In this document: positions 1 to 46,347 of the stretch, one piece after another | Layout of the letters: each line of letters begins with the position of its first letter | Numbering within the stretch: position 1 is the stretch's first letter | Assembly: GCA_003990765.1 (NCBI GenBank) | Contig: RBNJ01000028.1 | Coordinates: 1-49,985, forward strand | DNA from: Jimgerdemannia flammicorona | Taxonomy: Eukaryota | Length of the DNA: 49,985 nucleotides | Direction of reading: 5' to 3' | Made by a program: the position numbers and the translations under genes | The notes under the pieces: model-generated | What the model saw: only the letters and a program-made list of their open reading frames with translations | Database searches by the model: none | What the model was told of the DNA's origin: nothing

Positions 1-360
1 CCTTGACTGTAAGGGTTGACTTGATTTTCTCAAATAGGATCTGAGCTATGCAGAAACCTATGGGGATCTTGAAGGGTGTCCAACTATGGTTTCGGATGAG
101 GACAATAATTTCGCCTGTATAATCCTCGTCAATGACTCCTCCTTCTACTGAGAGTCCTTTCAATGCTAGGCTGCTGCGACAGCATATTCTTCCAACATGT
201 CCTTCAGGAATTTGGATGCTGATTCCTGTGTAGACTTGCTTGACTTCTTGGTTGGAGACTGTAGCTTCTTCGGCTGCATACAGGTCATATCCAGCTGCTT
301 TTTGACTTCCTTTGGTTGGGGCCTTAGCAGTTTGTCTTAACTTGACAAAGTCTAGTATTC
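1..360 (-). pseudogene. dut: dUTPase domain of family A element, in frame with gag nucleocapsid
   Basis: Manual translation: LDFVKLRQTAKAPTKGSQKAAGYDLYAAEE...TGISIQIPEGHVGRICCRSSLALKGLSVEGGVIDEDYTGEIIVLIRN...GFCIAQILFEK, i.e. trimeric dUTPase motifs I-IV. Motif V lies beyond the window edge but is seen in the copy at ~17705. Confidence 0.93.
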
Positions 361-2340
361 TGGTGGTCAGGTTGTTGAGGTGGTGCAGAGTAGTAACAGT
401 TGCTCATGTTGCTGTTCGGGGCTTCCGGTTGGGGCAGGCACTGGCCATGTGTCCTGTCTTTCGGCAATAGAAGCATGCTCTGCTTCTTTGAAGTTCATTC
501 CTTTCTCCTTCAGTTAGTTTCTTGAAGGTACTCGGCTGGGTGGGTTCATGATTTCTGGGTGTCCAAGAGGTGGATGTGGAGGGAGCTCAGGATGCTTCAT
601 GCTTGGGTTCTTCTTTCTTGGTCCAAGTCTTTTCCTTGTTATTGAATTGTCTTTGGGGCAGGATTGGTCCAGCTGTTAGGATTCGCTTGACCATAGTCTT
701 GATTCTTGCCAGGCACCATTGTTGGTGGTCACATCCAACTGGGCGGCCTTGTTCTCGGATTTTTCTAGTAAGCCATTCAGGCAGTGCATCGAATAAATGG
801 TCTGCTCTTGTATCATTTCGTGCTTCATCATTGGCAATATATCCTAGGCCAACGGTGTTCAGGAGTGACTCGAGTTTTGTACAGAAGGTTTCGAATTCTT
901 CTTTGCCATGTACATCGAATTTGAGGTTGCAGAGTTTTACTCGAGATTCGGCGATCATTGTTTCACTGCGGTATTGAGCAATCATGAGTTGTTTGAGTCC
1001 AGGGGCTGCAGGATGGGCTCTGTATCCTGGGGCATTGTTTGCTGCATTCTGAGCAACTACTGCAGGTCGGGTGTCCCATGTAAGGGGTTTTTCAGGAAGG
1101 GTTCGCCACCATTCTTCGGCAGGTCCTCAGAAGAATGTAACAACTCAGCGGACATAGGCTGTGGTGGTAGCAAAGAGTTGTTCCAGAGTGTGGTCTTGAT
1201 TATTTGTCAGAATGCGGTCAGCAACTCGCTCATTGGTCCATTGATTGGCTTCGAAGTTGGTGTCAATTACACTAATGAAGTTGGACTTCTTGTACAGTAC
1301 CATTGAAGGTAGGTAGGCTCAGATTTTTTGTAGGTCAGGTCTGTTCGGCTAAGGCAGTAATGGTTGCTGCCATTATAGCTACTTGGGCTGTGAGGTCTAG
1401 AATCTGTTAGTTTGCCATGTTGTTTACTGGAGGTGGTTGGACTACTGGTAGTGGTGTTACTGGTACTACTTGAGGTACTGGTGCAGAGTGTGAGGGTGTT
1501 CTTTGGGTCTGTGTAAGTTGCTGGAGTAATAGCTATGGGTCTGGGTGAGGGCTTGATAAATAGCTGTTTGTTGCTGTGTCGGTGTATTCTGGCCTGATGG
1601 AGGTGCATCTCCTTCGGTGGTGTATCTGGGATCGAATTCAATGAGATACTCCTCCTCCTCTTCCATTTGGTCCCCATGTAATTGGGTTTGCTCGGCGTCA
1701 AAGTAGACAGAATCAGTTATATATCTGATTTCAGACGGACTTAATTCAAAGTCAAGTTCAGGTTCGGTATTGGTTTCAGATTCAGGTAGGGTTGTAGTAG
1801 GGCCTGCTTCAGGTTCGGGGTCAGGTAGTTGATGAAGGGTTTCTCTTGCTTCTTCCTTAAGAATATGTCGGGCCTTGCTGTTCTGGAATCAGTAGTATAA
1901 CGCAGTCTTGGTCCTGGTACAATGAAAGTCAGTAGAGTTAAGCCACTTGGCTACAGAGGCTTGGGCTTTGTGAGGAACTAAGGCTAGAAAGACTGCTGCT
2001 GGTTGTCCTAGGTTGCTTGGATTTGTAGAGCTGACAAAACTCTTGTTGAGAAGAGTAAAGAAGGCTTCTATAAGATCTTCTTCGTCTTGACTTGCTGGGT
2101 GTAGTGCAAGGAGTTCGGTGAATAGGGTTTCGCCTATTTGCTGATTTAATTGGAGTACTTCTTTTTTTGAGTGAAGTTTGTCCCACTTGTTGCAGGTGTG
2201 GAGGTCAAATTGTCCTTGTACGTCAGGTTCAATTCTCTCCAGATTGTCAGATGGTTCAGGATAAATTCCAGTTCAGAGGTTGGGCTTTATACCAACTTGT
2301 AGGAATTCTCAGAAGGGTTTGTAACTGGGTGAGGAAGCAT
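361..2340 (-). pseudogene. gag: Gag-like polyprotein of family A with C-terminal zinc knuckle, interrupted by point-mutation stops
   Basis: Probable ATG at 2338-2340, just past the PBS. Track ORFs 1466..1666 and 587..985 are pieces of it. CFYCRKTGHMASAC knuckle at ~434-476. The stops examined are TGA/TAA consistent with CGA/CAA C-to-T changes. Confidence 0.8.
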
Positions 2341-2365
2341 CTTGAAGTGGAACTTGGATTGTAAA

Positions 2366-2377
2366 CCGCTGCTACCA
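2366..2377 (-). promoter_or_regulatory. Primer binding site TGGTAGCAGCGG (probably initiator tRNA-Met)
   Basis: 3 nt after the LTR terminal CA on the minus strand. Starts with TGG (complement of tRNA CCA) and resembles the complement of eukaryotic tRNAi-Met 3' ends. Decayed versions at 21316-21326 and 31542-31553. Confidence 0.8.
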
Positions 2378-2858
2378 AGTTGTAAGAGGGTTGCTTTTTA
2401 GGGTAACTGTTACATAGTTCTGGAAGGGTTTTCTGGAAGTTCTGGATATTCTGAAAGACCGTTTTCTTATGGTCAAGATCAATTTCATATGGGGTACGTC
2501 CTCTACGCTTATTGATTTCAAGTTCGGGTTGACGTCTCAACCAAAGTCCTTTTTCGGACTAGTTCTGGATGTTCAGGATTTTCCGTATTTCAGGAAGTTC
2601 AAGAAACTAAGACCAGCTTAGTTGAATTGTCGTATCGCTGCAGACAATACCCAATTAGGAAATTTCGTGATGGGGTTAGGAGTAGGACCTAATGGGGAGC
2701 GGATTTACTTAAGAGTGGTTTGTAGGTTATTAAATAGGTTTATTCACTATTCATGATATTGCTATACTAGGAGTAGTTGTGTGAAGGGATATTGTGGGGA
2801 GTATTCAGGAATGTTCTGGTGTGTTCGAGTCTGAGATTCTGAGGTCTGGGGGAGGGGG

Positions 2859-2866
2859 TATTTATA
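2859..2866 (-). promoter_or_regulatory. TATA box of the LTR (TATAAATA)
   Basis: Conserved in the other LTR copies (~10907, ~21821, and 31032 on plus). TGAGTCA at 2986-2992 lies upstream. Confidence 0.6.
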
Positions 2867-3055
2867 CTAGTGAGGGGCTATCTGGACTATGCTAGATATG
2901 GATGTAGCACTAAGTGCCTTGCTGAGTCGGAATGCAGTCACGTAGTACAAGTGTGATCTGACATATCAAGAGATCGTCTGACTGCTGAGTCAGTTCACAG
3001 TCACATTGTACAAGGCTAATCTAACTATAATATGACTGCTAGGCTATTTATAGAT

Positions 3056-4153
3056 TTAGGCACTGTCTGAGTAGTCTTCGATGACATCACCATCGATTGC
3101 ATCATCTCTGATGAAGTAGTCATCTAGGAAGAGTGGTTCGTGGATTACTTCTCCTTGTTGGCTGAGGTAGTAATACATTGGGACTTCGTCTCCGTCCCAC
3201 AGGATAGCATCGTCTGTTTCGTATGCTGGATAAGGTGTTGGTGGGCGAAGGATGGGTGAACTGTCTTCGCTTTCATCGGATTCGCTGTCTGCGTACCTTC
3301 TATAGGTTACAGTACTATGAGTCACGGGGTTGTAGTAAGTTGGCGGCTGTAGTTCATATCGCTCGTATTCGGGTGGTGGAGTTGTTGGTTCGATCTCGAG
3401 GGTTGTCTGGAGGTACAGATTGTGTTCTCCAGTCTCTTCATTGTAATTGAAGTAATCAGGGGTGAATGCAGGTTGGTATTCATGCCAGTGATCATTGTCC
3501 CAATAAGTCTTGTATGTATTTATGAACTATTGTAAGTTCATTGGCAATGTTGGTGGTGTGATCAGGGTTGGCAGGGATCCTTGGCTTGAGGTCATGTCGG
3601 CGTCAGAGGGATCATTGTCTTCTGCTTCATCTTCGTTGAAGTGGATTATATCATAGATGTCCTTCATGGTATAACCGACTTGAGGCATTTGCAGGATGTG
3701 ATCATTGGGGTGCGGGAAGGTTCTGTCTGTGGTTTCAACATACTCGAGGTACTTGTGGTTGAGTTCTTGTATCATGTCATTGATTTGGCCATAGGACAGG
3801 GTAGCAACCATTTCGCTGGTAGTAACTCGGAGGCAGGGAATAAAGGTGCTATACTCATAAAAGAGTTCTCGGTGTTTGCGGGGGTTGAGCTTCTGGTGTT
3901 GAGACAACTGGGTAATGTCTGTGTCGTGGTAGTGTTCAACCATATCTTCTAGGAGGCGGCCGATCTGGTAGTAGCTTGAGATTTGTCCGATCCGGTGGGC
4001 CTCATTAAGCATGTTTAGGGCATTCCATCAGGCTTCCATGAAATAGAGGGGAGCTAGGCTATGGATGTTCATGAGGGGTAGAGGGGGTGTGGCCCAGTTG
4101 ACAATGGCATTCCAAATGTCAGCGTGGATGCGGTTATAGATCTCGGTGGTCAT
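3056..4153 (-). pseudogene. LTR(U3)-encoded accessory ORF of unknown function, ~365 codons, acidic C-terminus
   Basis: ATG at 4151-4153 (MTTEIYNRIHADIWNAIVNW...). Track ORFs 4028..4492, 3527..4012 and 3056..3325 are all in one frame, broken only by TGA (4028-4030) and TAG (3527-3529). The TGA codon is CAA in the 10416-12457 LTR, implying ancestral CGA. Confidence 0.7.
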
Positions 4154-4223
4154 GTTTGTGTATATTGGAAGTTGTGGTTGTTGTTTATTTTGGTTCTCTG
4201 TTTCGACGTATCTTGTTGCTTGG

Positions 4224-4329
4224 TATATATACATTTTGTCCTGATTGGTAAGATTCCATTTGTATGAATCTTGTGTTCCGTGACTTTGTGTTGACTCAGC
4301 TTTGTGCGCTGTGACTTCAGTTTGACTCA
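4224..4329 (-). promoter_or_regulatory. Putative second promoter inside U3: two TGACTCA sites plus TATATATA upstream of the U3 ORF
   Basis: TGACTCA at 4292-4298 and 4323-4329, TATATATA at 4224-4231, ATG at 4153. Confidence 0.45.
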
Positions 4330-4589
4330 GCTTCATGAACAGGCAGGTGATTTCTAGATTTGTTTGGAGGTCACGTGTGATTTCAGTGGCTTGTCCAGAG
4401 GGTGATGTGTGATTTCGGTGGCTTGGAGGTTGTGCACTTACAGGTCCTGTATCAGTGAAGTCAGGAAAATCTGCCAACAGAAATACAAGCAAGATGCTGC
4501 CAAAGCAAAAATAAAAGCTGAAGAAGATGACCAGTCCCCAGAACTTTATGCTGACAGGATGATGAAGAGGAACAAGAATCAGACATCAC

Positions 4590-5000
4590 CCTCAAGGTCA
4601 AGAAGTTTTACCCCAAAGCCAAGATCCCAGAATACAAGACTGAAGAAGCCATAGGAATAGACCTTGCCAGCATTCAAGATGCTACTCTCAAACCACAGAC
4701 CACTACTCTACTTGGTACTGGAATTGGAGTCAAACTGCCAGAGAACCATGTCAGAATTATCAAGACCAGGAGCAGTCTGGCCAAGAGAAAAATCTAAGTT
4801 AAAGGAGGAGTAATTGACCCTGATTACACTGGTGAAATCTTCCTCATAGTCAGAAATCACAACCACATCACCCTGTTTGAAGTCAAGAAGTATGACAGGA
4901 TTGGCCAGAAGCTGATCCATGAAATCAAGAAACCCAAGATCATTGAAGCCATCAAACTCATCAAGACCAAGAGAGGAGAATAAGGCTTTGGATCTACTAG
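4590..5000 (+). pseudogene. dut: dUTPase domain of element C, directly upstream of RT
   Basis: KAKIPEYKTEEAIGIDLAS...GTGIGVKLPENHVRIIKTRSSLAK...GGVIDPDYTGEI...DRIGQ...RGE*GFGST: all five dUTPase motifs. Confidence 0.9.
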
Positions 5001-5099
5001 AAGAGGAGCCTATGCTGCCACCAAGATTACTGAACTTGAGCATAAGAAAGACAAGGACCAGAACAAGAATATATATACCATTGGAGAAAACTTTTTTTA

Positions 5100-7760: not shown

Positions 7761-7764
7761 CAGC

Positions 7765-10415: not shown

Positions 10416-12457
10416 TATAAGAGGGTTACTTATTAAGATAACTATTATGTAGTTCTGAAAGAGTTTTCTAGAAGTTCTGGATATTTTAAAAGACTGTTTT
10501 CTTTAGATCAAGATCAATTTTATATGGAGTATATCCTCTTTACTTATTGATTTCAAGATTGAATTAATCTCTCTACCAAAGTCCTTTTTTGGACTAGTTC
10601 TTGATATTTAGAATTTTCTGTATTTTAGGATATTTAAAAAACTAAGACTAGCTTAGTTGAATTTACATATTGCTGTAAACAATATCCAATTAGAAAATTT
10701 TATTAGAGGGTTAGGATTGGGACCTAATGGGGTATAGATTTACTTAAGTATAGGTTGTAGATTATTAAATAGATTTATTTGCTATTTATGATATTACTAT
10801 ACTAAGAGTAGTTTTATGAAGGGATATTGTGGAGAAGTATTTATGAGTTGAGTTTGGATTGTTCTTATCTATTTAAGTCTGAAATTCTGAAATCTGAATG
10901 AGGGGGTATTTATACTAATATAAGGTTATCTGGACTATATTAAATATAGATATGGTACTTAATGTCTTGCCGATTTTGAATATAGTAATATAGTATAAGT
11001 ATAAACTGATATATCAAGAGATTGCCTAACTACTGAGTCAGTATACAGTTATATCATATAAGGCTAATCTAACTATACTAATGACTGCTAGACTATTTAT
11101 AGATTTAGATACTATCTGGATAGTCTTTAATAATATCACTATTGATGATATCATCTCTGATAAAGTAGTTAGCTAGGAAGAGTGGTTCTCAGATTACTTC
11201 TCTTTATTTGCTGAGATAGTAATATATTGGGATCTCATCACTATCCCATAAGATAGCATCATCTATCTCATATGCTAGATATGGAGTTGGTAGATAAAAA
11301 AGAGATACATTATCTTTGCTTTCATCAGATTTGCTGTCTATATATCTTCTATAGGTTATAGTACTATATATTACTGGGTTATAATAAGCTAATATCTGTA
11401 CTTTATTTTGCTCATATTTGAGTAGTAAAGTTATTAGTTCAATCTCAAAAGTTGTCTGAAGATACAGGTTGTATTCTTCAGTCTCTTCATTATAGTTTTA
11501 GTAGTTAGAGATAAATGTGGGTTAGTACTTATATCAGTAATCATTATCCCAATAGGTTCTATAGGTAGTTATAAACTATTATAAGTTCATTAGTAAGATT
11601 GGTGGGGTAATCAGAGTTGGTAGAGATTTTTGACTAGAGGTCATATTGATACAGGAGGAATTATTATCTTCTGCTTCATTATTATCAAACTAGATTATAT
11701 TATAGATATTCTTTATATCATATCTAACTTGAGATATTTGCAGAATATGATCATTAGGGTATGGGAAAGTTCTGTCTGTAGTTTGAATATACTTAATATA
11801 CTTATGATTGAGTTTTTATACTATATTATTAATTTCACCATAGGACAGAGTGGTAACCATTTTAGTAGTAGTAACTTAGAGGTGGGAAATAAAGATACTG
11901 TACTTATAAAAGAATTCTTGATGTTTACAGGTAATGAGTTTCTGGTATTAAGATATCTGAGTATATCTGTATCATAGTAGTATTCAACTATATCTTCTAG
12001 GAGGTAACCAATCTGATAGTAGCTTTAGATTTGTCCAATTCAGTAGACTTTATTAAGTAGATTCAAAGTATTCCATTGAGATTACATGAAGTAGGGAGGT
12101 GCTAAGCTATGGATATTTATGAGGAGTAGAGAGGGTATGGCTCAGTTGACAATGGTATTCCAAATATCAGTACAGATGCAGTTATAGATCTTAGTGATAA
12201 TATTTATATATATATTTAAGAGTTATAGATTTGTTATGGTTCTCTATTTTGATATATTTGAGTATATAGAATATATGTATTTAGTCTTAATTGATAAGAT
12301 TCCATTTATGTAAATCTTGTTTTCTATAACTTTGAGTTAACTTAGCTTTATATTCTATGACATCAGTTTGACTCAGCTTTATGATCTTATATTTGATTTC
12401 TAGATTTGTTCAGAGAGTGATATGTGATTTCAGTAGCTTAGAGGTTGTTTGCTTATA
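10416..12457 (-). repeat. 3' LTR of copy B
   Basis: Colinear with 2381-4442. Termini decayed to TATAAG...CTTATA. Preceded on the minus strand by the PPT. Confidence 0.9.
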
Positions 12458-12471
12458 ACTCTCCCCTTCTT
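12458..12471 (-). promoter_or_regulatory. Polypurine tract (AAGAAGGGGAGAG)
   Basis: Purine run directly abutting the start of the 3' LTR on the minus strand. Confidence 0.85.
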
Positions 12472-12479
12472 AGATTTTG

Positions 12480-15400
12480 ATATCCTTGTCAAGGTCTTCT
12501 AATTTTGGTCTAGTGTTATTACACTATTTGAATAGTCAAAAGTTATAGTATAGTTACCTAATGCATTAGATTCATATGTTAGAGTTGTGTATTCAATGTT
12601 GTATACTAGAAGTAATTCTGATAACATTTACTACTGGAGAATTTCCTCTCAGAAATCTTCTTAAATATCTACATCTCATTTCTCATCAGTGATATAGAGA
12701 GAATAAGCTAGCTTTCAGTTTTGCTGTTTTTCTAGAGAGTTGGTATTCTTTTATCTTACTGAGTTCTTAATTTTGTTCATAATAATTATAAGTATACTGA
12801 ATGTTCAGAAGGGGTAATATATAGATAGATATTGGAGTATTTAGGTTTTAGTTGTTTAAGAATTATATTCTTGAACTAAGTTAGTAGTATTCTAGAGATT
12901 GGTCTTGGGTTCTTATATTGTATTTTAGATTGGATAATCTTTCTATTTGATAAGATATTCTGGATGGTTCTTGTGACCACATTTATTGAGGATCAGTTCA
13001 ACTTCATATTCTTCTTGGTCATTAATAATAATAGATATAGGCAGTTTTGCTATTTGTTTCAGGAAGAGCTCATCATCTTTTTCATTATATTACTTGAGAT
13101 ATTGAACATTGAAGACTGGGTGAATCTTAATAGTATCTGGTAGGCTCAATTTGTAGGATATTGGAGAGTCTTGAATGATAACTTTGAATAGTCTAATAAA
13201 TTTGCTGTTCAGCTTTAGAGATGGTCTATATTTGAGATTATCAACTCAGTGTCCTTAGATGTCTAGTAGAACTTTTTCTCCAATGTCAAAAGTTTCTTCT
13301 TGACAATACTAATTGATATACTGTAATTGTTGTTCTTGAGCTTAGGATAAATTCTTGATTGTAATCTGGATTAAGTTATGCATTTGGAGTAGGAATTCTT
13401 CAACTGTTTCGAAAGTAGAGAGTTCATTAGTAGTTCTGATGAGTATCAGAGAGGTATTCAGGTTTTGTCCTATATTGGCAAAGAAAAGAGTCATTTCAAG
13501 AGAGACTTGCTTGCTGTTATTATAGGCAAACTCAACTGTAGTAAGGTATTCATATCAATTATCTTGTCTATAGAAAATATAGTTCTTTGGCATTTGTTTT
13601 AGGGTTTAGTTCATTCTTTCTGTTTAATCATCATATTTAGAATAAAAGACTGTAGATAGTATAAGTTTTATTTCAAAGTATATATAAAGAGCTTTCCAAA
13701 AGTAGCTGATGAATTTCTGGTCTTAGTCACTAATAATGATCTTGAGAAGATCATGATAGTGGAAGATGTTATTTAACAAGAGTATAACAATATCTGGTCC
13801 TATTGTAATAGTAGTAGTTAGCACAAAGTAGGCTTATTTGCTGAGATAGTCCACAAAGACAATAATTGCATTCTTTCCATTCTTGGTTCAGAGTAGTTAT
13901 ACAATAAAGTCTATAAAGATTTATTCTCAATTAGTAGATAGTACTGGGATAGGATAGAGTAGGCTAGGTTTTGCTAGTGTTGAGAACTTATTGCATTGGC
14001 AGATATCATAAGAAGTGATATAGAACTTTAGCTGATCTATTGTATAGGACTAATTGAAGTTTTAGTAGATAACTTCATAGCATTTATCAAATTCTAAATA
14101 TCCAGCTATAGAGACATTATGACATTTGAATAGGATAGTCCTTCAGAGGTCTCAATTGTTAGAAATATACAATTGTTCTTATAGTAGATAATATTGTTCT
14201 TCAGTTAATATTGATAGTACTAGGTATACTTGTCAATATTATCACTGCTCAGGATTTCATAGAGTATTTGAGCTTCTTTATCATTAGTACTACTGTGATG
14301 ATTTGTTCTATAATAGAGTTGGTCACCAGGGTGAGAGTTTGAATAACTTCTTCAATTAGTAGTCTGGAAATTATATTGGAAACAATATTTTTCTTTCTAG
14401 GGTAATATTAGATTTCATAGTCAAAGTTAGTGAGAACTTTCATCTCTCCCTTTCTCTGCTACCTTACTGGTCACAATGGTTTGGTAGGCAATCTTCTGAG
14501 TCCACTTTCTACAATTATTATCCCCTCTACCTTGGGTTAGTTTGCTATACCTATTGCAGGTTAGTGGGAGGGAGGCAATGGTGATGAGTTGTCTCTGTAT
14601 TAGTGTCTGATTGGTGTCTTCTCCACTTTTTCACAGTTTCTGGTGCCTTCAGCTGTGTCTGTAGTAACCATTTTGGTGCAGCACTTTCTTTCTTTGAGTA
14701 TCACCAATAAGGTACTATCTTGGTATATCACAGGTTACATAGGAAGTTGGCTGACCTTGAGTATTAAGTGCTCAGTATAGGTTACCTACAGGTCCTTGGT
14801 GCCTGTAGTGGGGACCTCTGGCTTTGGTGAGCTTTCTGGCAAGTACAGTTCTAGTATATATGGCTGTTTTTCAGATGATGTCAGGATGAGAGGGGAGATG
14901 GCTATCACAGATAGGAGAAAGGGTGATTATGGTGAACCAGTAGGGTGCTAGGCTGGGGGCAGTTGTCAGGGCTGGGGCAGGTACTGCTTCAATGGGGCCT
15001 TTTGATTGGTGCTGAGTGGTTAGGTGGTACATATCACTCTCAGCTTCTTTTGGTGATTTGGTGGATTGGGCCCCAGTCATTGGTTAGGGTCAGGGAGCTC
15101 AAGGCTACCCATTTCAGGCATCTTGGCTGCCCTTAACTGGAACCAGGAACTGATATAGCAATGTGATTGAGACCCACAGGCTTGAGTAGTGGGGTATTGG
15201 GGGTCTTCTCCTGCCTCATATGTAAGTTCTTTACTCACCTTGACTGGGAGAACCAGGCCCTACCCACCATGATGTACTTTGATGGATATTTTTTCTTTGT
15301 CTATCATTCTCTTTAAGGTGGCAGGGGCTATTCTATTAGGCTCAGGTGTGGCCTTATATATACATTGGGGTCTCAGGCATGTATTTTCGGTCATTGGTGT

Positions 15401-18100
15401 ATGGCTGAGTTCTGCCTGGTGGTAGGGAGAGCATGGTATGCAGAATGAGATCTGGGCCAACAAAGACCCTACTGTACCTGGAATGGTCAAGCTACTGAAC
15501 AATAGCTAGTCTAGGTTAATGGGGGGATAGTGCTTGATAGATAGTAGGAGAGGGTTTTGGCCTATATAGTCTAGGTTCCCTTCCAATAAAAATCTGTGAG
15601 ACATTGAGTCCATTAAAAAAAAAAGTGAACTTTCATCCATCTGGCTTGCTTTTAAGAAAGGGTAGCCTGGGTCTTGATATTGACTAATGATTTGTAGTCT
15701 GTTCATATAGTAAAATATGCTTCTTCTAGATAAGGTTGCTATTTGATCAGAGTATTAATAATGGCTAACATTTCTATCTCATGAGTAGCATAGTTGATTT
15801 TGCCATCATTGAACTTTCAAGAATAGTAGACCATAGGGTATTCTTCTTGTATAAGTACTGCTCCAAGAGCTAGGTCAGAGGCATCAGTAGTAACTTCATA
15901 TAAGAGGACAGGGTTTACTACTTGAAGTACTGTAGTAGTTATATATTAGAGTATCTTTTAGTACTTGAAAGGCTATATCTCATTCAGGTCTCCAATTCAT
16001 GAGATTGTTGAAGTTTTTTTTTTTGTTTTGTAGTCTAGAGCTGTTCTTCTTTTTTGTTATACTTAGTTATTTGGGTGAGAGCAGTAGTGATCTTAGGAAA
16101 GTTTGCAACAAATTGTTAATAATAGTTTACTAGTCCTAAAAATAACTAGAGGTCTTTCAGCTTCTTAAGTATGAGCCATTCCTTTATTGTAGAGATTTTG
16201 CTTGGATCTACTTTAATTCTATTTAGAGTAATAATATGTCTAAGGAATTGAATTTTCTTCAGAAGGAATTCATATTTACTAAGTTTTACAAAGAGTCTAT
16301 TTTTTCGGAATTTCAGTAGTATTAGTTCAAGGTTTTGAGATATTTCTCTAGGGTTTTGCTAAAGACTAAGATGTTATTAATATAGATAATAACAAATTTA
16401 TCTAGATATAAATATAGATAAATTTATTAGTGTCTGAAAGATTGTAGGACTATTAGTTAAGTCAAAAGATATAACCAGAAACTTGAAGTGTCCATAGTGA
16501 GTTCAGAAGGTAGTTTTGTAGATATCTTCTTTTTTCATAACAATTTGTCAGTAACTATTTTACAGATCAAAGAGCTCACAAATTATGGATTGGTAGGTCT
16601 ATCGAATATTTTATTGATTTAGAATAATAGGCAATAGTTCTTAATGGTCTATTCATTGAGATCATGGTAATCAATAGATATTTGTAGGTCTTCTTCTTTC
16701 TTAACAACAAAGAGGACTAGTATACCATAGGGTGATATACTGGGTCTAATGAATCCTTGTTTAGAAGTTCATTGGTCACTTCTTAAGTGCATCAATTTCT
16801 CTCAGAGATATATAATAGATTGACTTGATGGCTGGCTTGGTATCTGGAATAGTTCTAATAGCATAGTCTACTGTTCATTTAGATTGTAGGCCTTTCAGAA
16901 GTTTCTTTGGTAATATGTCATGAAATTTCTAGAGTAAGGGTCTAATATAGCTCTCAATTTGGAAAAGTCTTCTTTATTGTTCTGTAGTTCTCCTTTGGAT
17001 GAGTGGATAGAGATAATAAAGAGAGGACATTTCTTGTATAATTTCTTATATTATAGCTTATTGATATAAGTGATCTTTAGTCCAGAGTTATTAGGACTAA
17101 GTGGCTCTTTTTTATGTTATATTTTAAAGTTGTGGTATCCTTTCTTAATGATCAGAGAATAGTTTACCCAATTGATCATAGGGTTCTCTTGTTTTAACCA
17201 TAGAGTTCTAAGGATGATTTCATTGTCAGAAGGTGGTACAATCTGACATATAATATATACTCAGTAGTCACCAATTCAGAAGGGTAGGTTGTAGACTTCC
17301 TTGCTAATAATATATAAGATTCTATCAGCTATAGTAACTACTTAAGTCTGTTATATCAGAGAGATCAGGACCTTGAGTCTGTTGGCTGTTTCTTCATCAA
17401 TAAAATTGTCTGAGATACTGCTGTCTATCATAATCTTAACAGGTGCTTGATTGATGAAAGCTTGGAGTATAAGTAGTTTGTCTGATCAAATGCTAGTGAT
17501 TTCAGTTATAAGAGTTCTCCTTCTATTAGTTCTCTTTTGGGCCAATTTATTGACCTAAAAGAAGCAATTGTTGATTATTCAAAAAGAGTACATTCTAATA
17601 CTATAGAGGCATTAGCCACTTGATATAAATTTATCTTTAATTTTCTTATAGAATTATTCTTCTTTACTCAAGGTAGATTGGGCTGGCATCTTATTTGATA
17701 AGCCAAAGCCCTTAGATCTTTGAATGATAGATAATAGTTCAGAGACTTTCTTGACTATCAGAGTTGACTCAATTTTTTTGAATAGTATCTGAGTCTGATA
17801 GAGATCTTGAATAGTATCCAACTATGGTTTCAGATGAGGACAATAAATTCACCTATGTAATCTTAATTGATGACTCCTCCTTCTACTGAGAGTCCTTTCA
17901 ATGCTTGGCTATTGCAATAGCATATTCTTTCAATATGTCTTTCAGAGATTTGAATGCTGATTCCTGTATGGACTTGCTTGACTTCTTAATTGAAAACTAT
18001 GACTTCTTTGACTATATATAGATAATATCTAGCTATCTTTTGACTTTCTTTGGTTAGGGCCTTAGCAGTTTGCCTTAACTTAATAAAGTCTACTACTTTG
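12480..18100 (-). pseudogene. pol: pol region of copy B: dUTPase (~17705-18095), aspartic protease (~17130-17470), RT (~16150-16900), RNase H, integrase, chromodomain (~12880-13020)
   Basis: QRSKGFG (dUTPase motif V). MIDSSISDNFID and ILRTLWLKQENPMINW (protease). FVIIYINNILVFS (decayed YIDD, ~16373-16384). DASDL.LGAVL (RNase H). DQEEYEVELIL...EYLIK*KDYP...*EPKTNL (chromodomain). Confidence 0.9.
14445..15624 (+). mobile_element. ~1.2 kb non-autonomous poly(A) retroposon, copy 1 (inserted in RNase H of copy B)
   Basis: AATAAA then an A tail at 15615-15624. TSD GAACTTTCATC at 14434-14444 and 15627-15637. Colinear with 18204-19397. Confidence 0.85.
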
Positions 18101-18203
18101 ATAGTAAGATAATTATTGAGGTAGTACAGAGTAGTAATAGTTACTTATGTTGCTATTTGGGGTTTTTAGTTGAAATAGGTACTGGTCTGATATTCAGTCT
18201 TTT

Positions 18204-19397
18204 CAAACAGCACCTTTCTCTGCTACCTTACCAGTCACAAGGTTTGGTAGGTGACCTTCCAAGTCCCCTTTCCCCTATTATTACCCCCTCTACCTCGGGT
18301 TGGTTTGCATGCCTGCAGGGGCATGGTGGGAGGAGGGCAATGGTGATGAGTTGCCCCTTTATCGGTGTCAGATCAGTGCTTCCTCCACTTTTTCATGGAT
18401 TCTGGTGCCTTCGGCTGCATCTGGAGTATAACCATTTTGGTGCGGCACCTTCTTCCTTTTGCCGTTGCCAACAAGGAGTTATCTTGGTGTGTCTCAGGCT
18501 ACATAGAGAGTCGGCCAACCTTGGGTGTCAAGTGCTCAGTATAGGTTATCTGCAGGTCCTCGGTGCCTGTGGTGGGGCCCTCTGGCTTTGGCAAGCTTCC
18601 CGGCGAGCGTGGTTCTGGCATAGGTGACTGTTTTTTGGGTGTTGTCAGGATGGGAGGGGAGATGGCCATCACAGATAGGAGGAAGGGTGATAACGGTGGA
18701 CCAGTAGGGTGCCAGGCTGGGGGCAGTCATCGGGACTGGGGCAGGTACTGCTTCAGTGGGGCCTTTTGATTGGTGCAGCACAGTTAGGTGGTAAGTATCA
18801 CTATCGGCTTTTTTTGGCAGTCAGCGGGGTTGGGCCCCAGTCGTCAGGGCGGGTCAGGAGGCCTGAGGCTATCTATTTCAGGCATCTTGGCTGCACTCAA
18901 CTGGAACCAGGAGCTGACACGGCAATATGATTGAGGCCTGCAGGCTTGAGTAGTGGGGTATTGGGGGTTTTCTCCTGCCTCATGTATAAGTCCTTTACTC
19001 ACCTCAACTGGGAGAACTACGCCCTACCCACCGTGTTGTACTTTGATGAGGGTTTTTCTTTGCTTGTCACTCTCTTTAGGGTGGTAGGGGCTATTCTATT
19101 CAGCTCGGGTGTGGCCTTGTATATATGTTGGATTCTCAGGCATACACTTTCAGTCGTTGGCATATGGTTGGGTTTCCCCTGATGGTAGGGAGAGCATGGT
19201 GCGCAGAATGAGGTGTGGGCCTATATTGGCCCTGCTGCGCCTGGCATAGTTGAGCTGCTGAACAATAGCTAGCCTAGGTTAATGGGGGGGCAGTGCTTGG
19301 TGGGTAGTGGGAGAGGGTTTTGGCATATATAGTCTAGGTTTCCTTCCAATAAAAATCCATGGGACATGAGTCCATTAAAAAAAAAAAAAAAAAAAAA
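18204..19397 (+). mobile_element. ~1.2 kb non-autonomous poly(A) retroposon, copy 2 (splits the CCHC knuckle of copy B)
   Basis: Perfect 15-bp TSD GATATTCAGTCTTTT (18189-18203, 19398-19412), AATAAA at ~19347, ~21-nt A tail. Confidence 0.88.
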
Positions 19398-19412
19398 GAT
19401 ATTCAGTCTTTT

Positions 19413-21290
19413 AGTAATAGAAGTAAGCTCCACTTCTTTGGAGTTCATTTCTTTCTCCTTCTGTGAGTTTCTTGAAGTACTTGGCTGAGTAGATTTAGGA
19501 TTTCATAGTATATATGAGATAAATATAAAGTGAGCTCAGGATACTTCATATTCAGATTCTTCTTTCTTAGTCTAAGTTCTTTCCTTATTATTGAATTGTC
19601 TTTGAGGCAGAATAGGTCTAGCTATTAGGATTTGCTTTACCATAGTCTTGATTCTTACTAGGTACTAATATTGGTAATTACTACTAACTGGGTGTTCTTT
19701 TTCTTAGATTATTCTTGTAAGCTATTCAGGTAGGATATCAATAAACGATCTGCTCTTACCATTCTATACTTAATCATTTGCAATATATCCTAGACCAACA
19801 GTGTTCAGGAGTGACTTGAGATTTATACAGAAGGTTTCAAATTTCTCTATTCTATATATATTAAATTTGAGGTTGCAGAATTTAACTCAAGATTCAGCAA
19901 ATATGGTTTAATTGCAGAATTGAGTAATCATGAGTTGTTTGAGTCCTGGGACTGCAGAATAGTTTCCATATCCTGAGACATTATTTGCTGTATTCTGGAT
20001 AACTACTATAGATTGGATATCCCATATAAGGGGTTTTTTAGAAAGGGTTTACCACTATTTTTTAACAGATTCTTTGAAGAATATAACAACTCAGTAGACA
20101 TAAGTTACAATAGCAGCAAAGTATTGTTCCAGAGTGTAGTCTTGATTGTTTGTCAGAAGACAGTCAGCAACTTGCTCATTGATCTATTGATTGGCTTTGA
20201 AATTAGTATCAACTACATTAATAAAGCTTTGGACTTCTTGTATAGTACTATTGAAGATAGATAGGCTCAGACATTTTGTTGGTCAAGCCTGTTCAGCTAA
20301 GGCAGTAATAGTTGTTGACATTATGACTACCTTGGCTGCGAGGTCTAGAATCTGTTGGTTTGCTATATTGTTTACTAGAGACAGTTAGACTACTGATATT
20401 ATAAGTTACTGATATGACTTAAGATATTAGTGCAGAGTGTGATGGTGTTCTTTGAGGTTGTACAAGTTGCTGAAGTAATAGTTATTGGTCTGGAGTAAGA
20501 GCTTAATAGATAGCTATCTGTTGCTATATAGATGTATTCTGTCCTGATAGAGGTATATCTCATTTAGTCGAGTATCTAGGATTGAATTTACTAAGATACT
20601 CTTCCTTCTCTTCAGTTTAGTCTCCGTATAATTGGATTTTCTCAGTGTCAAAGTAGACAGAATCAGTTATATATTGGATTTTGGATGAGCTTAATTCAAA
20701 ATCCAGTTCTGGTTCAGTATTGGGTTTGAATTCAGATAGAGCTATAGCAGGGTCTGCTTCTGGTTCAGTATCAGATTATTGATGAAGGATTTCTCTTACT
20801 TTTTCTTTAAGAATATGGTAGGCCTTGCAATTATGGAAACAGTAATATAAGATAGTCTTGATTCTTGTATGGTAAAAGTCAGTAGAGTTGAGTGACTTGG
20901 CTGTGAAGACTTGGGCTTTATTGGGAACTAAGATTAGAAAGCTAGCTACTGGTTATCCTAAGTCACTCAGATTTGTAGAGCTAACAAAACTCTTATTAAG
21001 AAAAGTAAAGAAGGCTTCTATAAGACCTTCTTTATCTTGATCTATAGAGTGTAGAGTAAGGAGTTCAGTATATAGAGTTTCACCTATCTGCTGATTTAAT
21101 TAGAGTACTTCTTTTTATTGATAAAGTCTGTCCCACTTATTATAGATATAGATGTCAAATTGTCCTAGTACATCAGGTTCAATTTTCTTCAGATTATCAG
21201 ATAGTTCAGAATAAATTCCAGTTCAGAGATTGGACTTTATAACAACTTGTAGAAATTCTCATAGAGATATATAGTGGAGTTAGGCAGTAT
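19413..21290 (-). pseudogene. gag: gag of copy B (heavily mutated)
   Basis: Colinear with ~465-2340. Confidence 0.8.
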
Positions 21291-21329
21291 CTTGAGGCAG
21301 AATTGGATTATAAACTACTGCTACCAAGT

Positions 21330-24300
21330 TATAAGAGGTTTACTTATTAGCATAACTGTTACATAGTTCTGGAAGAGTTTTCTGGAAGTTCTGGATATTC
21401 TGGAAGACTGTTTTCTTTAATTCAAGATCAATTTTATATAGAGTACATCCTTTATGCTTATTGATTTCAAGATTGGGTTGATATCTCAACTAAAGTCCTT
21501 TTTTGAACTTATTCTAGATATTCAGGATTTTCCATATTTCAGAAAGTTCAAAAAACTAAGACCAGCTTAGTTGAATTGATATATCACTATAGACAATATC
21601 TCATTAGGAAATTTTATAATATGGTTAGAAGTGGGACCTAATAGAGTGTGGATTTACTTAGGAGTAAGTTGTGGATTATTAAATAGATTTATTCACTATT
21701 TATAATATTACTATACTAGGAGTAGTTATATAAAGTAATATTGTAAAGAAGTGTTTAAGAGTTGTATTTGAATTGTTCTTATCTATTGAAGACTGAGATT
21801 CAGAGGTCTGGGGGAGGGAGTATTTATATTAATAGGAGACTATCTAGACTATATTAAATACAGATGTAGCACTTAGTGCCTTACTGAGTTAAAATATAGT
21901 TACATAGTACAAGTGTGAACTGACATATATTTCTCTAGTAACAATCAGATTACACAATCTTTGAAGATACTCACAATAATATTTTTAAAGAAAAGAGACT
22001 AGTAATATAGTAACTAATGAGCCTTCCAAGGTATGTACTGAGCAGAGTAACCTTAGCATATTCAACTGGCAATATGTAGAAAAGGACCCTAGCTTGGGGG
22101 GAAGTATGAGAGGTCTGCTGAGAGGAGGATATAGAAGGAGAGAGAGTAGGATTGGAGGGCAGAGGATAGAGAGAGCAAGCTTTGCTAATATAGTAAAGAG
22201 GGGTCAGCCAGTGAATAGACTAGAGGGCTGACTGAGGAAACATCAGGAGACAGTGAGAGATATGGCTGCTGCTAGAGGGCCAGGAGGGGCTCATTGGGGA
22301 TGTTGGGTGGAAGGGCTAGTAGTGTAGTGACTGGGAGTGTAACTGCTAATAGAGTGGTGACTGACAATCTGGAAAAACATCAAGATGTGATTGCTGATGG
22401 CATGGCTGAAAGGATGGGGCTTAGACAGATGGGAGATCTGGCAGATAGTATAACAGACCTGGCAGTGGCCCCATTACTCAAGAAGTTGATCTTAGAGTTT
22501 GTGATTACTTTATATTTCAGGAGTTTGGCAGTGACAGCGAAAATAGTATTGGGGCTGATTGCTAAGTAGGTGGCTAGAGTAGTATCTATAAAGTTCCTGA
22601 AGAAATTGGAAGGGGTGGAGATGAGCTTTGAGAAGGCAGAGCTATTAGAGAATGTACTGAAGACTAGGCTGACTATTGGAGAGATGTAAATTCTAATGGC
22701 ATACTGCTTGAGGTAGGACTCCAGAGTGGTGCAACTTCTGATAAAAGAGGTATCCATAGTGACTGTTGTGGAGATGAGGAGGAGAGTTGAAGAAGTCATG
22801 ACCAAGTATGGAGAGGTGATTGATGTTAGGATCTGAGTCTGAGAAGAGATCTCATTCACAACTGGGAATGTTAATGTCCAGATTTAGTTGATAGAGAGGG
22901 AAGCTACTGGGAAGGCCAGGGACTGGCCTTTGGTAATAGTATGGGGAACATTCTTGTATAAGATAACAAGAGTGAAGGAGAGTAAAGAGGAGGAAGAGGA
23001 TTTGTTAGAGGTACTAGAGGAGCTGAGTAGTATAGTAGAGTAGAGAGTAATGGCTTGAAAGATATATATAGAGTTGACACATTTGGAGATAGTGGATAAG
23101 AAACAGATCCACATAGATAAGAGGCTGTAGAAAAGGTCTCAAGGATACAAGAGGTAGAGAGAGCTGTTGGTGAATCTGGATAGCAAGGTAAAGAAGGATG
23201 CTGGTAGAATTGAGGTCATAGGGAGAGCCAAAGTGAGTGTCTGGATCAGCAAAGATAGAGGAAATGTGAAGAAGGGACCAGAAGTGAACAAGAAGATGAC
23301 TGGTAATGATCTATATGTGGATGATATATTTGAGATCTAGAAGGACTTCACAACTTCTACTCCACTTATTAGATGAGGTCTAGCTTCAAGAAGCAGGGTG
23401 ACAGAGGTTGTACATATGTGGGAGACCCAGTGAGAACACTTTGGAGTTTCTGAGATAGTGCAGGAGAGACAGATAGTAACAGCTAGCAAGAATGAACTGA
23501 TGGATGTCCAAGAGGAGAAGCTGTAAGTGTAGGGACTGATACCTCAATGCTGGATAGAGGAAGGCCAGTAACTCTAAGTGGAAAGGAGATGGGAAACCTA
23601 CTTTAGATGTGCTGGATGATGAACAACTTTGCAGTGGAGGAGTTGGGAGAGGTAGACCTGAGAGTAATAAGTGAATAGTATTGGACATAGATCCTATAGT
23701 GATAGAGTGGTAGAGACACTGAAGGCAAAGATTCTTGAAGTTTTTCTAGAAGAGGAAGGATATGGGATTGATAAGAAGAGGAAGGCCAACTGGTGGTTTC
23801 TGCTAGTAAGCAGACCACCTTCTATTGGGCAGAGCATCATGGGTTACAGCTCTGGCAGAAGGCCTGCCTGGAGTATTGTGAGGATTTCAAGAAGAAGAAT
23901 AGGGAACTTGTTGAACTACTGGTGGAATTGAAGACTAAGAGGATTAAAGAGGAGGTGGTGGCTACTGAACATAATCTAAACTTAGCTCAGGAGGAGATAA
24001 ACATAGAGCAGTAGAGAATATAATTGCTATTTCACAATATTCCTTATAAATAGTATAATTAACATTTTTTCTTTAAATATAAATAGGTTATAGAGTTCAT
24101 TCTAGCATTAAAAAAATTTTACTTTGCTTAAGGAATTGGAGGCTGATCTCTTTCTTTTGTAGGATTTCAGATATAAGAATGATTTAGATAGACTGGATAG
24201 ATAAAAGATTAGGGAGGTGAGGTGGTTTGGAAAGACAAGATTGGGATTCTGATCTAGAGAGATAGAGGGGAGATACAAGATATAAGAAGCTGGGGAGATA

Positions 24301-27300
24301 GACTAGTTTGGGGAAAGTGGATATAAACAGATTGGGAGCCAGTTACAGTGAGTTTCTGCTATTGTCCTTCTGTGAGGGTTGAGCATATAGATTGGGTGAA
24401 GGGTCTCCAAGAGAGTGAGGCCCTCATAGAGATAGAAGTAGATATGCTTAGAGGGGACTTTAATATAGTCGGAGATGTGCTGGTAGATAGAACTGATAGA
24501 GGGTGGAAGATAGAGAATAAGATTGGTGGTCTGGAGGCATAGGAGGAAGTAGAAAGGCTAAGTGCTCTAGTGTATGCTGGCAGGGAGTTTTGGGGTAATA
24601 GGAGGGTATATATGCATTGGGTAAGTGGTCTGGAGACAAGGATTGACTGGGGTTTAATGGCAAACTACTGGGGCTTGGGTGTTTAGAAGTCACTGAAGGC
24701 TGAGTAGTATCCATGGTCTGATTATTGAGGACTGCTAGGATAGGGACATTTTGGGGGAAGTGGGAATGGGCCTAGACATTGGTGTCTCAATTCCTCTATG
24801 TTGGATAATAAGATGTTTTGGGACAAGTGAGTAAAGGATATTCAGCAGAGGGTGGAAGGTTGAATATCACAAGGAGCCCTAGTTAGTGTCTAGTGGATAA
24901 GGATGAAAGAGGCTACTAGAGTCTACTGAAGTAAAACTGGTAAGATGACTGGAAGACAGATGAGGAAGAGGACAATGTGGGCTTCTGCTAGATTGGCTAA
25001 ACTTCTAGAAGATTGGGCTGATCTGTTGGCCCTGGAGAGGGTGGAGGACTGAAGACTATTGTGGGTAAAAATAGAGATTGGGGAGTTATAACAGATATTG
25101 TGGAAGGAGGAGGAGGTACAGGTGTAGTGGTTGACAGTATAGTTATGTTGGCAGGGACTGGAAGAATGGGAGAGACTCTCTAAGTATCTCACAAGGACCT
25201 TTCAGGCAAGGAGAGTAAAGCAGAGGTGAAAGGGAATACTAGATTCTGATGGTCAGCTAGTATATAATATATAAGATATTCTCAGATTATTGAAGGAGAG
25301 GTGGAGTAATTTGTAGAGTCAGGAGGAGAATGTCTATTGGCTACTAAAGTTTTGATATTTGGCTTATTAACTGGACTTCCTAGCCTGTGTGGTAAAGAGA
25401 CTGTTGAAACTGGCCAAGGGACTGAGAGAAGGAGTGAGATTAGCTGGGAAATCTAATCTTTACCAGTAGATAGAGGGGGTCCCAGACTGATTGACTTTCT
25501 GAAGAGACTGCACTATCTGAGAGCATAGTAGCTGAAGAGAGCTGTGGAGCTGTGAGAGAGTGGCTGAGTTCCTCTGATAAAGAAGGTCTGAGAGATAAAA
25601 TCCTTGCCAAGAGGCTTTATAGGGGATCTATTATTCTTGATTGTGCTTCAGAACAATGGATATATATAGTATAAAGACTTCTGCTAGGGGGTAGCAGATG
25701 GGGTGCACCATATTGGAATTCACTGGAGGAGAGCTAAAGGAGAGTTGTCTTGGTGCCTAGTAAAAAGATAAGATAGAGTACTATTGTAGAGCATCCCCCT
25801 AATTGATTTTGATATTGGTGATAGGCTCAAGTGCCTGAAGGGACTAGGAGAGGATTTATGGCCCAGTGGATAGTAGTTGGCTGAAATTGGGGAGGAGTGA
25901 GACTGGAATGGAGTCTGGGCCTATAGTGCTGAGATATAGTGATGGCTGCCACTGAAGTACTGAGTGGTCTGATGATATATACTACAGAGAAATGTTATAC
26001 TCAACTTTCACTCAGGCCATCTTATAGAGGGGAGTAGCTTTGACTGTGAGGAGTGCTACAATATAGGACAGAAAGGGGAATTTGTGCAGATATCAGAACA
26101 TTGGCTGGGAGAGTATAAGATACTTAGCAAATTTTTGCTAGCAGTTGGGGATCAATTGTATATTGAACATAGAGGGGATGGTAAGAGGGGTCAGTAGGAG
26201 AATTTGAGAGATACATTGGTGGGGGTGGGAAAGGAGTGGCTTACTATAGATTTGGTATTAGCTAATTGGATAGGGCTGATCAGTCACTAGTTGTTTATTT
26301 TTGAGGACAGAAGGTATTTGGGTTTAGAAGTATAGCTATTGAGATAGAAAGAGTTGATGGAGGACATTCTGACAGGCTGTTGGTTAGGTTGGAGTCTATA
26401 GGGTAGTCAGTGGTATCACTTAGTAGAGAAAATCTATAGGTAGAGTGATAGGAGGGTTGGAGTAGTGGGTGGTAGAGTAGTATTCAAACATAAAGGTATG
26501 GGGGGGGGCTTCCCTATGGAGATTGGATAGTGGGAGTATAACTATATCAATAGACTGATAATAAATAGTGAGTCCAAGTGACTACAAAAATTAAAAAAAA
26601 AAAATTAAAAAGTTTAACTGATATATCAGGAGATCATCTAACTGCTGAGTGAGTATATAGTCATATTATATGAGGCTAATCTAACTATATAAATGACTGC
26701 TAGGCTATCTATAAATTTAGATGCTGTCTGGGTAGTCTTTGATGATATCACTATCAATGATATCATCTCTAATAAATTAGTCATCTAGAAAGAGTGATTC
26801 TTAGATTACTTCTCCTTATTTACTGAGATAATAATACATTGAGACCTCATCACTATCCTACAGGATAGCATCATCTGTCTCAAATGTTAGATATGGAGTT
26901 GGTGGACAAAGAATGGGTATATTGTCTTTGCTTTCATTAGATTTGCTATCTACATACCTTCTATAAGATATGGCACTATATGTTGCCAGATTGCAATAAG
27001 CTGATAGCACTACTTCATATCACTCATACTCAGATAGTGGAGTTGTTGGTTTGATCTCAAGAGTTGTCTGAAGATATAGATTATATTCTCTGGTCTCTTT
27101 ATTATAGTTAAAATAGTCAGGAATAAACATTGGTTGATTCTCATACAAGTGATCATTATCTTAATAGTGTTTATAGGTAGTTATTAACTATTATAAGTTC
27201 ATCAGTAAGGTGAGCAGGATGATCAGAGTTAACAGAGATCCTTGGCTGGAGGTCATGTCAGTATCAGAGGGATCATGATCTTTTACTTCATCATTATCAA

Positions 27301-46313: not shown

Positions 46314-46347
46314 ATGCGGTGATATTATCACTCTCAAATACTTTGCT

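Follow-up and report, generated by a model that had tools for sequence, protein, structure and literature searches.

The 49,985-nucleotide stretch of the Jimgerdemannia flammicorona genome analyzed here (GenBank assembly GCA_003990765.1, contig RBNJ01000028.1, positions 1 to 49,985 of the forward strand; hereafter, the window) contains Ty3/Gypsy retrotransposons whose long terminal repeats (LTRs) carry a 365-codon open reading frame (ORF) in the same orientation as gag-pol. This ORF is very likely a real gene of the element. Comparison of the sequences of its copies shows that the element lineage kept the ORF under purifying selection, with constraint at the protein level, and the surrounding motifs suggest that it lies entirely within the U3 region of the LTR. 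The coordinates of all features are collected in Table 1.

Self-comparison of the window revealed four occurrences of a repeat of about 2.05 kb: the 5′ LTR of an element that we denote A, the two LTRs of a complete element, denoted B (10416-28068), and an inverted, truncated copy. The 5′ LTR of element B is divided by a 4.7-kb insertion. On the minus strand, the LTR of element A begins with TG (4442-4441) and ends with CA (2382-2381), and it is followed by a sequence resembling a primer-binding site (PBS), TGGTAGCAGCGG; no tRNA gene that could be matched to it was found in the window. The polypurine tract AGAAGGGGAGAG (12470-12459) is located one base ahead of the 3′ LTR of element B, and the 5-bp flanks of this element, GAAAC (28073-28069) and GAAAT (10415-10411), differ by a single C/T change. 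We further compared contigs from four public sequencing runs with positions 2200-4600. Contigs of other copies break at the same LTR borders, passing at 4442 into the reverse complement of the polypurine tract and at 2381 into unrelated flanks. The LTR limits given in a preliminary description of this DNA, which relied on the TG..CA ends, the PBS, the polypurine tract, and a target duplication, are thus borne out, the 5-bp duplication being that of element B. In some contigs, the match covers the TATA/R/U5 part, or else the PBS side, before giving way to unlike sequence at 3110 or 2385; these loose ends are hints of LTR subfamilies with different U3 regions.

The interior of element A extends leftward past the window edge, and the gag/dUTPase part of the element B interior matches positions 2-2380. 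With stops read through, the element B interior yields Pfam matches to RVP_2 (E = 0.0095), RT_RNaseH (E = 1e-21), and SH3_Tf2-1 (E = 7e-11), with Chromo directly after SH3_Tf2-1 (E = 5.5e-4); no Pfam match to RVT_1 or rve was obtained in this heavily mutated interior. The domain order in element B points to a Ty3/Gypsy affiliation of elements A and B, which are probably chromoviruses. The earlier characterization as a chromovirus with a 2 kb LTR holds for the Ty3/Gypsy assignment and the LTR length (2,062 bp), whereas the Chromo match (20.3 bits) falls under the Pfam cut-off of 25.1 bits.

In the LTR of element A, three ORF fragments join into a single sense frame, as proposed previously, running from the ATG at 4153 to the TAA at 3058-3056. 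This frame starts 290 bp inside the LTR and ends upstream of the TATAAATA box at 2866-2859. The ORF is present in both LTRs of element B; three LTR copies cover it whole, and the fourth (30471-31520) retains only the last ~105 codons, so that the expectation of homologous sequence in all four LTRs was correct with the fourth copy partial. In copy A, the frame remains open upstream to 4585. This extension was rejected because it crosses the LTR border into the neighboring element, because a close homolog (P0003, see below) starts at the Met at 4153, and because indels at 4164, 4166, and 4184 break the frame in other copies.

The two LTRs of element B were identical at the time of insertion, so the differences between them record decay only and serve as a decay control. 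From these two LTRs, we inferred the state of element B at insertion and compared it with copy A. The differences between A and the inferred ancestor of B number 52, 24, and 103 at codon positions 1, 2, and 3, compared to 85, 54, and 85 between the 3′ and the 5′ LTR of element B, and this codon-position skew differs significantly from the decay control (p = 2.8e-4). The sites in the ORF that are targets for C-to-T change are spread 101/50/96 over the three positions and therefore cannot explain the excess at position 3. Transversions alone are distributed 4/4/13 between A and B and 14/9/8 in the control (Fisher p = 0.02). Upstream of the in-frame TAG, the skew is 29/10/60 against 50/29/47 in the control (p = 0.0012).

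Indels give a similar picture. None separates the A and B lineages in the 1,098-bp ORF, compared to six in the other 964 bp of the LTR; three ORF indels are private to one LTR of element B and hence arose after insertion. Across the four sequencing runs, seven of the nine indel places are outside the ORF, three of these (the ones at 4164, 4166, and 4184) only 11-31 nt upstream of the ATG, and the two inside the ORF are a +1/-1 pair, 3 nt apart, on the same contig. Among the 40 listed of the 375 variant places, 23 are in the ORF, distributed 8/1/14 over the codon positions, and 13 are synonymous.

The two in-frame stops have to be viewed against the mutational history of the repeats. Judging from their mutation contexts, the four copies in the window are dead relics of C-to-T hypermutation that resembles repeat-induced point mutation (RIP): in the LTR copies designated B and D, the mutated share is 62-68% at CpG, 48-57% at CpA, 31-41% at CpC, and 13-22% at CpT. 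In the hypermutated copies (10416-12457, 21330-28068, and 30471-31520), GC content is down to 0.26-0.31; the copy at 2381-4442 and the element at 4443-9100 are barely touched. The TGA codon is a CpG site, the most mutable context in these copies. The presence of TGA in A, of TGA in one LTR of B and CAA in the other, and of Arg in the 90%-identical P0003 shows that TGA came from CGA by a C-to-T change, in agreement with the preliminary description. That description had treated the TAG as a possible real or read-through stop. Programmed read-through was set aside as unnecessary, since the homolog P0002 (63% identical) has Gln at this position, and the simplest and likely origin of the TAG is a C-to-T change at the CpA of CAG.

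These homologs come from an exhaustive HMMER search of 1,835,955,588 representatives (E ≤ 0.001), which returned three matches, two of them convincing and both metagenomic. P0003, a 128-aa protein from a contig of 1,180 bp, shares 90% identity with residues 1-128 and begins at the same Met. P0002 (247 aa, on a 998-bp contig) covers residues 115-364, with 158 of 250 positions identical and 206 positive; it has two in-frame gaps of 2 residues relative to the ORF and ends one residue from the same stop. Because P0002 conserves the C-terminal half, this half is coding in the wider family as well. The third match, P0004 (E = 1.4e-5), was rejected as a homolog, its six short matches being weak and taken as spurious; it is a 436-aa protein with six tandem repeats, from a cluster of 18 on contigs of up to 138 kb, that aligns with ORF residues 111-148. 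Narrower protein searches gave one match among 426 candidates (“near”) and one among 26 (“shorter”), and scans of metagenome_contigs and viral_contigs found no relative. Of the 13 differences between copy A and P0003 (TGA included), 8 are single C-to-T or G-to-A changes in copy A, which indicates that even this best-preserved copy is slightly decayed.

To compare P0002 with neutral drift, codons 115-364 of the window copy were drifted to 63% identity in simulations, 1000 runs at each of two transition biases. The simulated sequences acquired 4.2-5.0 new stops on average, the probability of no stop was 0.002-0.011, and the fraction of positives was at most 0.79 in every run, compared to 0.82 observed.

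Several observations weigh against a selected gene. Downstream of the TAG, the codon-position skew points in the same direction and is not significant (23/14/43 against 35/25/38, p = 0.13). The Nei-Gojobori ratio of nonsynonymous to synonymous substitution rates (dN/dS), which the preliminary description had put forward as a check, is 0.16 in frame rather than near 1, and 0.91 and 1.86 in shifted frames, but the decay control already reaches 0.31, transition bias alone lowering the statistic that far, so the drop is only two-fold. Both stops are present in every usable copy, except for the CAA at the first stop in one LTR, and the TAG is shared by all three copies, implying that it either recurred or was already present in the common ancestor of A and B. 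No variant at the TGA or the TAG is found among the 40 listed of the 375 variant places, so the stops may be common among close copies or in the wider population. Finally, there are only two homologs, both fragments on contigs of about 1 kb that are possibly other copies from the same or a sister genome.

These points bear on the alternative that the frame is not a gene, being either a chance open frame in an A/C-rich U3 or a conserved cis-regulatory region, an alternative compatible with the two stops of the window copy and with the lack of a domain, a fold, and RNA evidence. Neither version accounts for the 3-base periodicity of the substitutions, for an indel-free zone that matches the ORF exactly, or for an open homolog of 63% identity, which neutral drift reproduced in no more than 1.1% of the simulations; we regard a non-coding origin as highly improbable. 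It is also improbable, to a lesser degree, that the ORF is a transduced host gene, or a fragment of one, that hitch-hikes in the LTR with a coding signature inherited from the host. LTR retrotransposons are known to capture genes (PMC7264820, in the available part of that paper). However, the ORF occurs in all LTR copies of the window and in thousands of contigs, a pattern that the same source regards as evidence against transduction; the excess at position 3 built up between two lineages of the element and thus when the sequence was already part of it; the 1.84 billion representatives contain no further relative; and in its strand skew (C>G, A>T) the ORF is like gag.

The encoded protein matches nothing recognized, as already noted in the preliminary description: the ORF pieces, P0002, and P0003 have no match in Pfam, a PDB profile search of the ORF (E ≤ 1) gave only SKA1 at chance level (E = 0.12), Atlas contained no usable match for P0002 (whose own model has a predicted local distance difference test score, pLDDT, of 0.39), and Rfam yielded 0 matches. 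The structural check suggested there was carried out in part: an AlphaFold2 model was made from a 3-row alignment, but it is of low confidence (pLDDT 33.7) and has no confident fold, with helices through residue 141 and little structure thereafter. The protein has 63 Asp and Glu compared to 17 Lys and Arg, for a net charge near -46. The predicted acidic and aromatic C-terminal tract is confirmed, with 17 Asp and Glu, 2 Lys and Arg, and 10 Phe, Trp, or Tyr among the 65 residues 301-365. Acidic and aromatic composition is typical of acidic activation domains (VP16, Gcn4-type) and of other acidic docking tails. The tail agrees in composition with the general definition of acidic activators, including those with a role like that of foamy virus Tas, being rich in acidic and in bulky hydrophobic or aromatic residues and poor in Lys and Arg.

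The placement of the ORF in U3 follows from the motifs around it. Past the ORF stop, a TATAAATA box (3052-3045) is followed by a second one, at 2866-2859, that is taken as the main element promoter; 115 nt beyond that box is an AATAAA that would end R, with ~360 bp more up to the end of the LTR. In such a conventional U3/R/U5 layout, whose U3/R border is inferred from these motifs, the ORF would lie entirely within U3. Ahead of the ORF, no ATG occurs between the TATATATA box (4231-4224) and the start codon, and further upstream are two TGAGTCA motifs (4329-4323 and 4298-4292), which we take to be AP-1/Gcn4-type sites and the first of which is kept in both LTR copies of element B. With its own TATA and two TGAGTCA motifs some 80-180 nt upstream of the ORF, each LTR may be a self-contained gene; we rate the chances that it is a self-contained transcription unit as even. 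Such a unit would begin, within the first 220 bp of U3, with the two TGAGTCA motifs and the TATA box, continue with an ATG-free leader of 78 nt and the ORF, and end with the poly(A) signal of the element ~310 nt beyond the ORF stop. An mRNA of ~1.5 kb would result whether the LTR is 5′, 3′, or solo. In the genomic RNA, the ORF would be inside the 3′ untranslated part. The polypurine tract precedes the ORF, which places the ORF within the LTR; reverse transcription therefore copies the gene into both LTRs at every insertion, and the gene would stay behind in solo LTRs.

A second element in the window offers a comparison. Between elements A and B, positions 4443-10415 contain the 3′ part of a plus-strand Gypsy element, denoted C, with a pol ~30-35% identical to that of B. 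It shows the same order of features: a PPT-like (polypurine tract-like) sequence, TG, TATAAAAG, an ORF about 80 nt on that encodes an acidic tail, AGTATAAATAC, and AATAAA. The 5′ LTR of element C is outside the window; from the PPT-like tract and the TG start, this second ORF (8316-9149) may likewise be LTR-borne. The second ORF has seven metagenomic homologs (57-87% identical), all seven with Trp at its in-frame TAG and both of those that reach its TAA with Gln there. Its model, from a 7-row alignment, consists of helices followed by a disordered acidic tail (pLDDT 38.8). No homology between the two ORF families was detected by BLASTP or tblastn, and hhalign gave a probability of 1.1% over an 18-column motif only. 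The tails of both families contain a motif of the form RDD-x-I-x-x-D-V/L-I, with the variants RDDAIDGDVI and RDDVIDDDLI in the first family and RDDVIDDVI and HDDIIGNDVI in the second; both proteins might use it to dock to a single host factor.

Element C also bears on how the gene might otherwise be expressed. In retroviral fashion, it would be the 3′-terminal gene of the genomic RNA, translated from a spliced subgenomic mRNA or by internal initiation, similarly to sag of mouse mammary tumor virus (MMTV). On the genomic RNA, the ORF is indeed between pol with the polypurine tract and R, as are sense additional ORFs (aORFs) of retrotransposons and sag/nef (PMC7264820, available part), and the upstream TATA is only a motif. 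Against this mode stand the TATA at -78, the two TGAGTCA motifs, and the ATG-free leader right ahead of the ORF, an arrangement shared by the unrelated element C, in which TATAAAAG is 80 nt ahead of the ORF Met. It would moreover call for an intron of ~8 kb, unusual for a fungus, fungal introns being short. We consider retrovirus-style expression unlikely.

Transcription of the whole element might instead start from the upstream TATA, at ~4200, which would make R ~1.5 kb long and the ORF the first cistron, as with ORF0 in Ogre or Retrosat2 except for its location inside the LTR. The TATA and TGAGTCA motifs are where a U3 promoter would be expected if U3 were only ~220 bp, and ORFs upstream of gag are known, such as ORF0 of Retrosat2, RIRE3, and RIRE8, which is in the internal region (PMC3485330, in the portion available). 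However, the two TATAAATA boxes, with AATAAA 115 nt on, form a conventional U3/R/U5 further down, element C shares the AGTATAAATAC...AATAAA module, and ribosomes would have to reinitiate at gag once past the 365 codons of the ORF and over 600 nt. A long R of this kind thus appears slightly less likely still. In run X10, regarded as RNA only by a guess, contig depth is very high over 2443-2847, with little over the ORF and none in the bins 3172-3495 and 4225-4600, and summed depth is lower over the ORF than over R-U5 in all four runs. Contig depth and uncovered parts are unable to rank the parts of a stretch, and no conclusion is drawn from either pattern; the X10 depth is only a lead as to where transcript ends might lie.

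Taken jointly, the reading that we favor, and consider moderately probable, is that of a genuine, selected U3 gene that forms a self-contained LTR unit with an acidic regulatory product. Given the composition of the tail, the product may be a regulatory adaptor in which the tail would act as an acidic activation-type or host factor-binding module, so as to boost or protect transcription driven by the main promoter, which lies a short way beyond the ORF in that LTR; this assignment of function is speculative and carries a low probability. The transactivator or anti-silencing role put forward in the preliminary description is likewise hypothetical, as is the persistence of the gene in solo LTRs. 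The joint reading has its own difficulties. The promoter, the poly(A) signal, and the TGAGTCA sites were assigned from motifs, and AT-only motifs are immune to C-to-T decay, so that their conservation says little. With its net charge near -46, the product is unlikely to bind DNA directly, and with no domain, PDB relative, or confident fold, the proposed function is an argument from composition. From the common order of features in elements A and C, one may go further and envisage a “U3 gene slot” in fungal Gypsy elements, whereby the LTR would be an autonomous cassette (upstream sites, TATA, ORF, and shared poly(A) signal) for an acidic accessory protein. Each insertion would double this protein, solo LTRs would continue to supply it, and it would act back on host silencing or on the main promoter of the LTR. 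We advance this generalization tentatively, as a possibility more doubtful than probable.

Retroviral genes located in or overlapping U3 include MMTV sag (“LTR ORF”), human immunodeficiency virus (HIV) nef, and foamy virus bel/bet. Like these, the present ORF is a sense frame in U3 and accessory rather than a replication enzyme. The differences are that it has no sequence or predicted structural likeness to them, belongs to a fungal retrotransposon without env, and has an apparent TATA of its own inside U3. With respect to sag specifically, there is no sag-type transmembrane segment and no relation through Pfam or PDB; Sag is a type II membrane glycoprotein, and the present protein is acidic and helical or disordered.

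Among LTR retrotransposons, the closest parallels are aORFs (Grande gene23, RIRE2, Retand, Boty brtn, and env-like ORFs), which are likewise extra, lineage-specific frames of undefined function; they are found in all or most copies, have no relatives outside the element, and evolve faster than pol (PMC7264820, available part). The present ORF resembles them in its occurrence in all four LTR copies (one partial) and in having two relatives among 1.84 billion representatives, and it is similar to the aORF-3S class in being sense and downstream of pol on the RNA. The aORFs described in the available part of that paper are internal to the element, positioned either ahead of gag or after pol and before the 3′ LTR, whereas this ORF starts 290 bp inside the LTR. 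The LTRs of Cassandra (5S rRNA-like), Helenus, and Ajax contain gene-like units with their own promoter that are copied twice per insertion, as here, but these specify RNA polymerase III small RNAs in non-autonomous elements rather than a 1.1-kb protein ORF in an element of the autonomous type (PMC10886601, in part).

Two groups of fungal elements are also comparable. The crapaud element of Podospora is a chromodomain Gypsy element under RIP in which the TATA/R/U5 half of the LTR is conserved and the U3 half differs between subfamilies; in the accessible portion of PMC10787394, this variation is discussed as promoter or enhancer evolution, and no LTR ORF is mentioned. The contig breaks at 3110 and 2385 are a hint that comparable U3 variants exist here. 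dUTPase-bearing fungal Gypsy elements (PosPlaTy3 of Postia placenta and those of Phanerochaete and Tuber) resemble the present element in placing the dUTPase after gag and ahead of the remainder of pol, and apparently also in a chromodomain-like tail on the integrase (PMC2864245, in part). In the same part, a figure legend names an “add. ORF” for some elements, the position of which could bear on the novelty of the present finding. No protein-coding ORF inside the LTR of an LTR retrotransposon was found in open-access full text, with figures, supplements, and subscription papers outside this scope. A protein gene in U3 is known from a few retroviruses and, on the open-access record, was not found in print for retrotransposons.

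The remainder of the window contains other repeats. The 4.7-kb insertion in the 5′ LTR of element B (21929-26615) has an excess of G over C on the plus strand (skew 0.42-0.50) and minus-strand frames of 92-167 aa without a Pfam match, and a 200-bp piece of it (24609-24808) recurs at 41427 and 46912. Within the AT-rich interior of element B are two direct 1.18-kb repeats (14449-15624 and 18213-19386; 81% identical, GC content ~0.41-0.50), 3.76 kb apart with element B sequence between them; they may represent a short element that inserted twice, or else solo LTRs. A plus-strand retroelement at 44373-48999 (GC content 0.51-0.59) has frames of 646 aa (no Pfam match), 201 aa, and 698 aa, the last with RVT_1 (E = 1.7e-28); no repeats of the LTR type were seen to flank it, which makes a non-LTR element probable. 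An older copy, 64-68% identical, is located upstream, at 38381-43170.

Table 1. Features of elements A, B, and C and of the LTR-borne ORFs in the window
Feature	Position	Strand	Basis or remarks
Element A 5′ LTR, 2,062 bp, GC content 0.44, least mutated copy	2381..4442	-	TG..CA ends, PBS-like site, repeats, junction contigs
PBS-like site TGGTAGCAGCGG, 3 nt beyond the element A LTR	2366..2377	-	Same site after LTR end 21330
Element A interior: gag-like frames 587-2272 (broken), dUTPase domain 2-403	2..2272	-	Pfam dUTPase, E = 1e-31
Element B 3′ LTR, GC content 0.28, heavily C-to-T mutated	10416..12457	-	Preceded by polypurine tract
Element B 5′ LTR, two pieces (26616-28068 and 21330-21928)	21330..28068	-	PBS-like site after 21330
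Element B interior: RVP_2 (weak), RT_RNaseH, SH3_Tf2-1, Chromo (sub-threshold), in that order	12458..21329	-	Pfam
Fourth LTR copy, inverted, truncated; gag-like sequence runs on to 33068	30471..31520	+	
LTR-borne ORF, 365 codons + TAA, sense to gag-pol, two stops in copy A	3056..4153	-	Translation, homologs, coding tests
In-frame TGA, codon 42	4028..4030	-	CAA in LTR 10416-12457, TGA in split LTR, Arg in P0003
In-frame TAG, codon 209, common to all three full copies	3527..3529	-	Gln in P0002
TATATATA, 78 nt before ATG, candidate ORF promoter	4224..4231	-	Sequence; TATA-like in other copies too
Two TGAGTCA motifs within repeated AAGCTGAGTCAA unit, candidate upstream elements	4292..4329	-	
TATAAATA, taken as main element promoter	2859..2866	-	Identical across the four LTR copies
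AATAAA, candidate poly(A) signal that would end R	2739..2744	-	Kept in all four copies
Element C: AGAAGGAAGA, PPT-like	8064-8073	+	
Element C: TGTAAT, LTR-type start	8074	+	
Element C: TATAAAAG	8229-8236	+	80 nt ahead of Met
Element C: in-frame Met of second ORF	8316	+	
Element C: second ORF end (TAA)	9147-9149	+	
Element C: TATAAATA	9904-9911	+	
Element C: AATAAA	10052-10057	+	

LTRs count as purely regulatory DNA, and annotation pipelines mask them so that no genes are called there. An LTR gene under selection would mean that each insertion delivers two gene copies, and solo LTRs, usually counted as inert scars, could go on producing protein. In fungal Gypsy elements, the length of the LTR and the variability of U3 may accordingly reflect gene content rather than enhancer turnover. 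The protein encoded by the ORF, having no known domain, represents a new family to characterize. The gene would be a retrotransposon counterpart of the U3 accessory genes of complex retroviruses and would make the origin of such genes tractable, for example, through a polypurine tract moving upstream of a 3′ aORF.

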